A DNA stretch of 63,015 nt, filler included, from Octopus bimaculoides (Eukaryota): the NCBI RefSeq assembly GCF_001194135.2. It is 5 parts of 4 records of this genome, joined end to end, with 100 filler letters (N's around TTAATTAATTAA, not from the genome) between each part and the next. Parts side by side here need not be neighbours in the genome. Positions count along the whole stretch, not along the records: positions 17,188 to 33,854 come from NC_068984.1; positions 33,955 to 51,745 come from NC_068988.1; positions 51,846 to 59,614 come from NC_068984.1; 2 more parts are not named here. One strand, 5' to 3'. The stretch's first letter is position 1; each line of letters starts with the position of its first letter. The notes below the pieces were generated by a model that searched no databases, had not been told where the DNA came from, and saw only the letters and a list, made by a program, of their open reading frames with translations. The translations under genes and the position numbers were made by a program. Positions 24,468 through 57,400 of the stretch are shown here, piece after piece.

Positions 24468-25830
24468 TAAAGAATATTACAGTCGAATAAAGAAAATTTG
24501 GATCTCGGAACTCTCTGCATTCAATAAGACAATGGCTCACAATGTGTTTGCAGTGCCAGTGCTCATACCAACATTTGGTTTGCTTGTTTGGACATTTGAT
24601 GAGATTCGAGCCATTGATGTGAAAACCTGGAAAATACTATCAAGCACACATCATTTCCAAATCAACAGTGTCGTAGACCGCATCTACCTCAAACGAAAGC
24701 AGGGGATCAGAAGGTTAACATCGATCCAGAATGACTTTGAATGTCGTATCGCATCTCTTCGGCAACGTCTATTAACCACCAAATGTCGAAGTGCATCCCT
24801 TGACCAAGTTTGTATACATGAGACTGATAACGTCATAAAGCTTGGAAAGCAGCTCTTTGATCTGCATTCCTTGTCTGATATCCATAAACACTTAACCAAA
24901 GTCGCACGACTCTACAACAATGTGTCATCAGATGAAAAGAAGAGCGTATATGAGCAGTAGATCATGCATGAATATATTAGTAGAAAGCTGCGAGATGATA
25001 GTAACATTGATCATGAAAGAAGTCTATCATGGACCAGCAACCCGATTACTACTTCCCAATTGGAAGCGCATGCGTTTGCAATCCAAGAACTGGAAATACC
25101 ACCGAAATGCTTGATGCACAAAAGGGACATAGATGCAAGAATAGCTGAAAAATGTGAAAAACCATGCAGACTTTGTAGAGTTAACACCTGAGATATCACC
25201 CACATCATAAGCAGTTGTCCGAAAACGTCATCACGGTTTTATCTACCGATGAAACATGATGTTACGGTATAAACCCGAGGACAAAGAAATACAAACCCAC
25301 AGTTTGGTGGAAGCCATAGTCACTCATAATAAAAAGTAGTACTGGTGGAATTTCTCAGTGAAAACCTCAATAAAATGTAAACACAATAGACCTGGCATAA
25401 TGATTCGGGATAGAGAGAAGAGAAACTGTATACAGTTATGTTTGGCAGCTGCTCAGTGGATGTTAACATAAAGCTAAAGATCAGCGAAAAAGAAAATACC
25501 TATGCCGAACTATTGAGAAATTTTCAGTTACTCTATACATATTACAAGTTCATATTTATACCTGTAATTATTGGGGCACTTGAATATGTAACAGACTGCC
25601 AAAATACAAATCTTGAGAAATTAGGCTTCTCAAAACCCAAAAGGAGAAAACTGATTCAAAGACTACAGATCCAATCCATAACTGGAACTGTAAAAAATCT
25701 GTAAAATTTTCCAGAAGTTTATCATTTAAATATATGTGAGCTTGTCTAGATATGCAACTATATGCATGAGAATACACACATAAAATATATAAATCTGCAC
25801 ATACATACATACATACATACATACATACAT
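24468..25830 (+). mobile_element. RLE LINE family C, 1.35-kb 5'-truncated copy (thumb, CCHC, RLE, 3' UTR) between CATA repeats
   Basis: DRIYLKRKQGIRRL; CRLCRVNT*DITHIISSCP; KHD; YWWN...KHNRP..MI.DREK; SCxxDVNI...EKENTY; IPVIIGAL; QSITGTVKICK..KFII*. Confidence 0.92.
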
Positions 25831-27714
25831 ACATGCCACGAACACCAGACGCAAGAATAGCTTGATTTTCAAAGCGTACGTATTGTGGATCAACCTGAAG
25901 GTATAATTAGTTAGTGTAAGATTGCACAAAAGTTAAGGATTCCACCTGCCACACTCAAAAGAGTAAGTCTACAATTCACAAAGAAAATGAGTTAGCAGCA
26001 CCCACTTGAGGTCAACTTGCAACATCTGAAAGGTGCCTTCGGACTGTCAAGTGGATTGGTGAAAATAATTCCTGTTGTAAGTCAGGTGGTATTGTAGAAA
26101 AGAGGTTCTCAAACTTTTTGGGCCACGGCACTCATCGTGCCCACAAAATACTCTCAGCGCTCCCACACCTATTTTTATGCATAAATAAATATTCTATATT
26201 TTACTAATTTATATATACTATGAATTATTTGATATTTGATATAATATTACATAATTTGTATACAATACTATATTATAAATTCATAGCGTCCCCCAATCCA
26301 CTGCCTTCCTCCCAATGCCTCCTTTTTCTCTTTTCCCCCCGCACCCGCCTTAGATACCAGCGCCCACCTGTCTATCTGTCTGTCTCTCTTTCTCTCTGTC
26401 TCTTTATATATATATATATATATATATATATATNNNNNNNNNNNNNNNNNNNNNNNNNNNNNNNNNNNNNNNNNNNNNNNNNNNNNNNNNNNNNNNNNNN
26501 NNNNNNNNNNNNNNNNNNNNNNNNNNNNNNNNNNNNNNNNNNNNNNNNNNNNNNNNNNNNNNNNNNNNNNNNNNNNNNNNNNNNNNNNNNNNNNNNNNNN
26601 NNNNNNNNNNNNNNNNNNNNNNNNNNNNNNNNNNNNNNNNNNNNNNNNNNNNNNNNNNNNNNNNNNNNNNNNNNNNNNNNNNNNNNNNNNNNNNNNNNNN
26701 NNNNNNNNNNNNNNNNNNNNNNNNNNNNNNNNNNNNNNNNNNNNNNNNNNNNNNNNNNNNNNNNNNNNNNNNNNNNNNNNNNNNNNNNNNNNNNNNNNNN
26801 NNNNNNNNNNNNNNNNNNNNNNNNNNNNNNNNNNNNNNNNNNNNNNNNNNNNNNNNNNNNNNNNNNNNNNNNNNNNNNNNNNNNNNNNNNNNNNNNNNNN
26901 NNNNNNNNNNNNNNNNNNNNNNNNNNNNNNNNNNNNNNNNNNNNNNNNNNNNNNNNNNNNNNNNNNNNNNNNNNNNNNNNNNNNNNNNNNNNNNNNNNNN
27001 NNNNNNNNNNNNNNNNNNNNNNNNNNNNNNNNNNNNNNNNNNNNNNNNNNNNNNNNNNNNNNNNNNNNNNNNNNNNNNNNNNNNNNNNNNNNNNNNNNNN
27101 NNNNNNNNNNNNNNNNNNNNNNNNNNNNNNNNNNNNNNNNNNNNNNNNNNNNNNNNNNNNNNNNNNNNNNNNNNNNNNNNNNNNNNNNNNNNNNNNNNNN
27201 NNNNNNNNNNNNNNNNNNNNNNNNNNNNNNNNNNNNNNNNNNNNNNNNNNNNNNNNNNNNNNNNNNNNNNNNNNNNNNNNNNNNNNNNNNNNNNNGACAT
27301 TGTAAACAAAACGTAGACGAGAAAACACACAAGCCATATATATATATATATATATATATATATAGTTTTAGGGAAAATATATATATATGCATGTATGTAT
27401 GTATGTATGTATGTATGTATGTATGTACGTATATATATATATATATGTATGTATACCGTTACTTAAATGAAAGAATGCATCGTAAATAAATGACGACAGA
27501 TAAAAACATATACGTATACAATCGGACGGGAGACAGACACTGAGGGTCCCTAATTCTCCATCAGTTATCAACCAATTAGTAATACTCACTTTTGCATCAT
27601 TAATGTATATGTATACGTTTTTTTTTTATCTGTCGTTGTTTATTCACTATGCATTTTTTCATTCATTTTATATATATATATGGGGTTGAGCGTGTATGTG
27701 TGCGTGGTGAGGGT

Positions 27715-27935
27715 GTCTTTGCGCCTGTATCTGTCCCCGACTACTGCTTGACAACTGCTGCTTAGGTGATTATGTCTTCGTGACCTAACAGTTTTACAAA
27801 AGATATGGAAAGAATTAGTATCAGGCTTAAAAAAAAAAAAAATACTACTGGGGTCGGTTCATTCGACAAAATTCTTCAAGGCGGTGCCCCAGCATGAGCA
27901 TAATCTAATGACGGAAACACGTAAAAGGTTAACGG
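27715..27935 (+). mobile_element. SINE S2, 3' half
   Basis: ctgcttgacaactg...ggggtcggttcattcgac...cttcaaggcggtgccccagcatg...gaaacacgtaaaag. Confidence 0.8.
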
Positions 27936-56154: not shown

Positions 56155-56600
56155 AAAATCTACTGTTACTTTATAGGAACTAAACTTTAGATTTATACCA
56201 ATAATTACTGGGCACTTGGAACAAAATTACCTCATCACTAATCCTGAGAATCCAAAAGAACATGACTAGTTAGGAAATTGCTACTATAAGTCAAGAAAGA
56301 CATTGCGAAAATATATACAGCATTCCAGAAGACTAGTAAGTGCATATACACATGTGAAGGCATGCGCCTACATATCCACATATACACTTGCATAAGTAAG
56401 TGTATGCATGGATATAATACACGCATATGTACATATATATGTATACATGCGTACATATATAGATGCATGCATAAACATGTGCATACTCGCTTACATACAC
56501 ACATACATTGCTGATGTTGTTTAAATTTTAGTGAAAGAGACTTATCTCTAGGTTAGAAGCCGGCTCTTTCTCCACTGGTGAAAACTTCGAAAAATAAAGC
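56155..56600 (+). mobile_element. Degenerate family C-related RLE 3' end and UTR
   Basis: NFRFIPIITG-like segment; UTR segment 56510-56600 is homologous to 57295-57385; followed by (CATA)n. Confidence 0.6.
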
Positions 56601-56634
56601 ATACATACATACATACATACATACATACATACAA

Positions 56635-57400
56635 AATATCATCACGGTGTTAGCTACCGATGAAACATGATGTTGTAGGTAGGTTACTGCATAACGAGAT
56701 CCATCGAAAGGATAATACCGAGGACAGAGAAATAAGAACCCACAGTATGGTAGAAGTCATAGCCGTTCATAATTGAAAGGAATACTGGTGGAATGTCTCA
56801 GTGAAAGCCTCAATAAAATGTAAGCATAACAGACCTAATATAATGATTTGAGGTAGAGAAGAGAAACTGTGCATAGTTGGGGAAATTAGCTGCCCAGCGG
56901 ATGTTAACATAATATTGAAGATCAGTGAAAAAGAGAATATCTATGCCAAACTATTGAGAAATCTGCAGTTACTCTATCCAGGTTACAAGTTCAGGTCTAT
57001 ACCTGTAATAATTGGGACCCTGGGATATGTGACACACTGCCTAAATACCAATCTTGAGAACTTAGGCTTCTCAAAGCCAGAAAGAAGAAACTTGATTTGA
57101 AGACTACCAATCCAATCCATCACTGGAACTGTAAAAATCTGTAAAACTTTCCAGAAGTTTATCATTTAAATATACATGAACATGTCTAGATATGCAACTA
57201 TATGCATGAGAATACATACATAAAGCAAAACATACAAATCTGCACATATACATACATACATACATACATGCATACATGCAAACAAAATATCATGTTGTTG
57301 ATGTTGAAATTCCAATGAAAGAGCCTTGAATCTAGGTTAGAAACAAGTTCTTTCTCTATTGGCTAAACATTTTGAAATAAAACTGAACAATGACATACTT
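56635..57400 (+). mobile_element. RLE LINE family C 3' copy between CATA repeats
   Basis: Co-linear with 25225-25800 (KHD, YWWN, EISCPADVNI, IPVIIGTLG, KFII*), with the same UTR. Confidence 0.92.

Follow-up and report, generated by a model that had tools for sequence, protein, structure and literature searches.

Truncated copies of a restriction-like endonuclease retrotransposon family adjoin (CATA)n microsatellites in Octopus bimaculoides

A 63,015-nucleotide stretch of Octopus bimaculoides DNA from assembly GCF_001194135.2 (hereafter the window; microsatellite-rich eukaryotic DNA including 7,160 N) contains dead, 5'-truncated copies of a high-copy retrotransposon family without long terminal repeats (non-LTR), of the restriction-like endonuclease (RLE) type, here called family C. 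Four of these five copies adjoin CATA repeats on the coding strand; the association is real and probably target-specific, its 5' side being drawn from this one window. Our preferred reading, to which we assign a probability of roughly 0.68, is that family C targets pre-existing CATA tracts in one orientation. The copies in the window are as follows, P0004 being an intact relative and P0002-P0005 related proteins, with UTR standing for untranslated region and RT for reverse transcriptase.

4097..4454, minus strand: c1, family C fragment from the degenerate CCHC region to the start of the RLE, cut at both ends (tblastn E 6e-18 with P0004)
24469..25798, plus strand: c2, family C copy from the RT thumb through CCHC, RLE and 3' UTR, with stops and frameshifts (tblastn E 1e-80 with P0004)
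29319..30394, minus strand: c3, copy of family C2, the same lineage by protein (tblastx E 6e-44 to c2)
56633..57245, plus strand: c4, family C copy from the end of the CCHC region through RLE and 3' UTR, one frame with 4 stops (47-51% to P0002-P0005)
56156..56440, plus strand: c0, older decayed family C 3' fragment with approximate limits (score 78, 0/1000 shuffles)

The DNA of c1, c2 and c4 is mutually 73-83% identical (c1 against c2 and c4, 73-78%); c3 has a different 3' UTR and is tied to these three at the protein level only, and the alignment of c0 is heavily gapped. Stops or frameshifts are present in each of c1 to c4, and the best named protein match of c2 is O. bimaculoides LOC106878562 (66%). 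In tblastn the window copies align in order onto the C-terminal part of P0004. The 5' ends of c1-c4 lie at four different points of the open reading frame (ORF), and a common loose 3' end recurs in all four sequencing runs described below, so that 5' truncation is variable and the 3' end fixed. A first-pass annotation of this DNA had reported these four truncated copies; all four loci are real and their limits have been refined, except that c4 does not extend to 57400, since 57291-57392 is a separate piece of about 100 bp. Pfam did not recognise the decayed window fragments (best E 0.0025 among 8 frames), a PDB sequence search with a c3 frame gave 0 hits, and the 3' UTR folded no better than shuffled sequence in 4/5 pieces, the fifth having z -2.0.

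Each junction was scored as the best 16-nt repeat match on the coding strand within 6 nt of it; junctions were placed by eye and not blind, and those of the c4 cluster are not independent. The CATA tracts at the copies are listed below.

4456..4509, minus strand: (CATA)5 followed by CATC-type repeats, directly 5' of c1 (16/16)
24335..24468, plus strand: compound (CA)n/(CATA)n tract, directly 5' of c2 (15/16)
25799..25834, plus strand: (CATA)9, the 3' tract of c2, with the same tail found family-wide
30395..30428, minus strand: CATA-type tract, directly 5' of c3 (15/16)
29265..29318, minus strand: CATA-type 3' tract of c3 (15/16)
56600..56632, plus strand: (CATA)8, both the tail of a short piece and the 5' flank of c4
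57246..57279, plus strand: CATA-type 3' tract of c4 (16/16)

The 5' junctions of c1-c4 match (CATA)n at 15-16/16 and (TAA)n at 8-9/16, and the 3' ends of c2, c3 and c4 match CATA at 15-16/16, c1 being cut at its 3' end. All tracts of c1-c4 read CATA on the coding strand and never TATG. The earlier observations that the four named copies abut coding-strand CATA, that the three copies with intact 3' ends finish in it and that none of the four junctions lies in (TAA)n were thus borne out; 5' CATA is lacking in c0, a fifth copy that had been overlooked and scores 7/16. With c0 included, 5' CATA is found in 4/5 ORF-bearing copies, against a background in which a CATA match of at least 14/16 occurs at 862/110,698 positions (0.78%). 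The binomial probability is 1.8e-8, or 1.7e-4 at tenfold background, which within the window sustains a strand-specific preference beyond chance. TAA at at least 14/16 occurs at 0/5 family C junctions. For c2 and c3, the two flanks set together read as a single compound microsatellite, and at the c3 and c4 junctions 1-3 bases can be assigned to tract or element alike. Both flanks of the family C copies are the same repeat, so a target-site duplication is not separable from the tract. Apparent family C remnants beside 4/11 other CATA tracts (0-2/300 shuffles) were set aside, the 3' UTR itself being CATA-like.

A control was provided by another RLE lineage in the window, represented by the following pieces.

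1..1508, minus strand: head-to-tail pieces in (TAG)n/(TAA)n
20944..21240, plus strand: piece with (TAA)n at both junctions
61978..62963, plus strand: two head-to-tail pieces joined by (TAA)n

Among the 7 scored 5' junctions of this lineage, CATA at at least 14/16 was found at 0/7 and TAA at 4/7, the remaining three being a (TAG)n tract that passes into (TAA)n, one AT-rich stretch and one internal join; at the 3' ends, TAA was found in 3/4 scored. Omitted from the count were the piece at 51339, which begins inside an N gap, the one at 21818-22402, for which no junction could be defined, and 34033-34317, a weak tblastn match. The difference between the lineages is 4/5 against 0/7 for CATA (Fisher p 0.010) and 0/5 against 4/7 for TAA (p 0.08). 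Other interspersed repeats showed CATA at 0/38 ends, one of which lies in Ns. Tracts of (TAA)n/(TAG)n hold head-to-tail stacks of at least two further RLE groups, at 1-1508, 20039-21240, 51339-51700 and 61978-62963.

By the domains of its relatives, family C is an RLE (R2-group) non-LTR retrotransposon in which RT is followed by CCHC and a PD-(D/E)xK-like endonuclease. Intact relatives are about 1,150 amino acids long (P0004; best 120 of 667 matches listed), Pfam finds RT in 26/26 of them, and in a single ORF they carry CCHC and PD..E..K motifs C-terminal to RT. The predicted C-terminal fold of the relative P0039, 48% identical to c4, matches R2 (E 2.7e-10, template modelling score 0.73, predicted local distance difference test 94.5). 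At the N-terminus the relatives share a conserved domain of three helices. Most of its highest-ranking structural matches are DNA-binding domains of the Myb/SANT/trihelix kind; the best is the Zeste DNA-binding domain (Z 5.8, root-mean-square deviation 2.5, 64 aligned), with further matches of this kind at Z 4.4-5.6. No zinc-finger pattern was found in the aligned N-termini of 18 relatives, and no apurinic/apyrimidinic endonuclease (APE) family was found among the Pfam rows listed, the C-terminal fold being that of an RLE.

Identity between P0004 and the group to which the TAA-flanked pieces belong is 33-36%, and the match of P0004 to R2 reaches only E 3e-28. Quick, midpoint-rooted trees were built from a hand-picked subset holding no named clade member (44 proteins with 7 window frames, and 35 RT domains). 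In both, the family C lineage forms one deep branch with Shimodaira-Hasegawa-like approximate likelihood ratio test (SH-aLRT) support of 99, and the TAA-flanked pieces fall outside it, which bears out the earlier reading of family C as a lineage of its own; the branch holds c2, c3 and c4 in the 44-protein tree (c3 with c2 and c4, support 88) and Argonauta hians proteins in the RT-domain tree. Family C has an R4/Dong-like architecture, and membership of R4/Dong, or a place as sister of Dong, is likely. Three other assignments were rejected: Dong proper, since (TAA)n insertion is absent (0/5 junctions); the R2 clade, since the aligned N-termini of 18 relatives show no zinc-finger pattern and the flanks are microsatellite and not 28S rDNA; and Waldo, since family C has a C-terminal RLE fold, with no APE among the Pfam rows listed.

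Beyond the window, reads were placed on c2 at 87% likeness from 4 of 24 sequencing runs, covering three organisms; this gave 7,786 raw reads, along with 12,567-15,692 contigs per run. From the 3'-end depth, very roughly 1,600-2,000 copies at this likeness were estimated, the genome size being assumed, on contig totals, to be 2.1-2.7 Gb. Loose 3' ends run into CATA in 4/4 runs (X21: 345 and 209 reads), and the CATA tail is therefore family-wide. At 25191, 270 reads match only after the CCHC motif and diverge upstream, which points to another abundant subfamily of the lineage. Among proteins, the lineage is widespread (P0040-P0117; clusters of up to 389 members, with intact ORFs), and the ESM Atlas returned only unnamed RT clusters. 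A metagenome scan yielded one locus (L001, 51%) from 118 candidate stretches, and viral-contig scans gave no family C relatives. Of two scans of genome contigs, one found nothing and the other gave eight loci, which were rejected as family C because all score higher with proteins outside the family C group. Loci L002-L009 are RT-encoding contigs, mostly RLE-retrotransposon-like, in bacterial genome records and probably represent eukaryotic contamination; a single 3' end is common to L003, L005 and L007, with TAA-like sequence after it in L007.

If family C targets existing tracts, then by analogy with R2-group biochemistry one protein would introduce a nick in the TATG strand and use the 3' end so formed to copy the element RNA through target-primed reverse transcription (TPRT). 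Reverse transcription would often stop early, giving 5' truncation, after which microhomology of 1-3 nt would connect the cDNA with the tract's upstream half. TPRT and 5' truncation follow from R2-group biology as described in passages of PMC13580325 and PMC3774820. Choice of the target would probably fall to the predicted N-terminal Myb-like domain, with base pairing between the RNA's CATA tail and the nicked strand as an aid. Because each insertion leaves CATA on both sides, further insertions would build head-to-tail stacks such as the one at 56156-57392. The first-pass annotation had proposed that the RLE endonuclease itself switched target; this is not supported, and the N-terminal domain together with tail pairing would be the likelier determinant, favoured over a re-specified nuclease because a Myb-like N-terminal domain has been argued to set R4/Dong specificity (in a passage of PMC7998251), because an R2 target shift is reported to have gone along with uptake of target sequence into the 3' UTR (in a passage of PMC5035012) and because the 3' UTR of family C is CATA-like.

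The order in the head-to-tail stack at 56156-57392 is c0, a piece of about 90 bp, (CATA)8, c4, CATA and a second piece of about 100 bp, the two short pieces being as follows.

56510..56599, plus strand: short non-coding piece like the c3 3' UTR, with CATA on both sides (69% to 57291-57392; 2/1000 shuffles against the c3 UTR; 5' CATA 15/16)
57291..57392, plus strand: second short piece like the c3 3' UTR, then a short CATA tail (score 49 and 0/1000 shuffles against the c3 UTR; CATA 13/16 on both sides)

These pieces could be extremely truncated copies or a non-coding passenger. The first-pass annotation had named derivation of the 5' tracts from adjacent copies as grounds for refuting its reading; the 5' tract of c4 is such a tail. 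Directly upstream of c1-c3 no related 3' end was seen: for c2 and c3, at least 9/300 shuffles scored as high in each of 10 tests, and for c1-c3 together 15 tests gave one marginal match (1/300), more than 200 bp from c1. Such a stack is what template jumping would leave, in which RT quits the RNA where the copy is truncated and resumes on the CATA-tailed 3' end of a different RNA, or on its own tail, producing head-to-tail chimeras and 5' CATA from the template with no DNA target preference; the same goes for a joint from 25795 to 25743, found in one contig each of X12 and X16 (15 of 226 joints listed), with 21 CATA-like letters between and then a further truncated 3' end. However, the degree of decay varies widely across the stack (69% likeness between the two short pieces, heavy gapping in c0), which suggests separate insertion events, and neither the lack of a related 3' end directly upstream of c1-c3 nor the similar stacking of the TAA lineage fits template jumping, which we regard as improbable. 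Stacking is also expected from repeat-targeting itself, and its being common to the TAA lineage too was counted for targeting.

A slightly stronger rival, though still an unlikely one, is that a short CATA seed was hit, copied to both sides by target-site duplication and lengthened by slippage, which would require a weak preference and no pre-existing tract. R4-clade elements make target-site duplications (in a passage of PMC3636483), the tracts that lie 5' of c1 and c2 are imperfect or short, and microsatellites are abundant in the genome; however, c2 and c3 lie in compound tracts with differing halves, and an older neighbour supplied, as its tail, the 5' tract of c4. A third rival, chance or passive accumulation in a genome rich in CATA, could draw on the 23 CATA tracts of at least 3 units in the window, and passive accumulation has been proposed for Drosophila Waldo-A and Waldo-B (in a passage of PMC3812793), but against a background of 0.78%, controls of 0/7 and 0/38 and a fixed polarity this is very improbable.

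Several points weigh against the targeting of pre-existing tracts or the mechanism proposed for it. The 5' evidence comes from a single window and five copies, whose junctions were set by eye; c0, the oldest of them, lacks 5' CATA and is preceded by an A-run, and the (CATA)8 at the 5' side of c4 is the tail of a neighbouring related piece. In the reads, the 24 best-supported of 2,632 loose-end rows include nine upstream ends, none of them a CATA junction and all continuing as element-like sequence; single-copy junctions are not expected among rows with such support. L001, the one relative from a host other than octopus for which there is DNA, lacks a CATA tail in the roughly 400 nt that follow its stop, and the target may therefore be particular to octopods. 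As to the N-terminal domain, the Myb-like call is weak (Z below 8, no Foldseek match at E 0.001), no Myb family was found among the 25 of 32 Pfam families listed for the relatives, and the domain was read on relatives, no window copy keeping its N-terminus.

Waldo elements are placed in R1. WaldoAg1, WaldoAg2 and WaldoFs1 target ACAY repeats, including ACAT, which equals CATA (in a passage of PMC3812793); they are insect elements with an APE endonuclease, whereas family C has a C-terminal RLE. Dong of Bombyx, DongAg, DongBg and the ostracod Dong1 and Dong2 are R4-clade elements with (TAA)n targets, according to passages of PMC3812793 and PMC7998251. Family C resembles Dong in the order of RT, CCHC and RLE, in what may be a Myb-like N-terminus with no zinc fingers seen and in microsatellite insertion in one orientation, but differs in its (CATA)n flanks, in its own C-terminal motifs and in lying on a deep branch apart from the TAA-flanked pieces of the window (SH-aLRT 99). 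Togen, which targets (TG)n, and microsatellite-specific HERO families are likewise RLE elements with non-TAA microsatellite targets (in passages of PMC4640811); being NeSL/HERO-related and having other motifs, they are set apart from family C by description. Family C is probably among the 'Dong-R4' long interspersed nuclear element families of octopus annotations, where abundant R4-like families are recorded in passages of PMC13282606, PMC8967140 and PMC9115989; these passages give no insertion target, and the word 'target' does not occur in PMC13282606. In agreement with the first-pass annotation, no (CATA)n-specific RLE element was found in the literature, in a search lying outside Repbase, Dfam and most subscription journals, yet ACAY is a known target of the APE-type Waldo elements.

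For an RLE lineage, itself apparently widespread, (CATA)n would be a new target, and the mechanism would not be new; because the principle of microsatellite targeting is already established, what is gained is one more target, together with a system for testing. RLE retrotransposons serve as tools for gene insertion; two related lineages in one genome, in (TAA)n and (CATA)n, would offer a natural comparison on how such elements change target, separating what the Myb-like domain, the nuclease and the RNA tail each contribute, and would link a microsatellite abundant in octopus to one particular element. A wider picture, conceivable but with the odds against it, is that an undescribed and widespread sister branch of Dong was re-targeted in octopods to a tetranucleotide repeat by the Myb-like domain and the RNA tail, that two RLE lineages divide the microsatellites between them (TAA and CATA), and that the CATA lineage and its short non-coding passengers make their own targets and hence a large share of octopus (CATA)n.

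Other features of the window were also recorded. A near-perfect inverted repeat of 354 bp (51846-52199, 98% self-complementary) lies beside an N gap and may be an assembly artefact or a miniature inverted-repeat transposable element; 39833-40022 and 2720-2804 are self-complementary at 84% and 89%, respectively. Fragments at 55930-56150 and 15987-16292 are presumably mariner/Tc1 transposase-like, by motif and with no Pfam match; the former abuts c0 and may have removed its original 5' flank. A frame at 32163-32498 we take, with no Pfam support, to resemble a GIY-YIG/Penelope C-terminus. Tandem arrays of a 22-bp AT-rich unit, with 94-98% matches, occupy 12527-13238.

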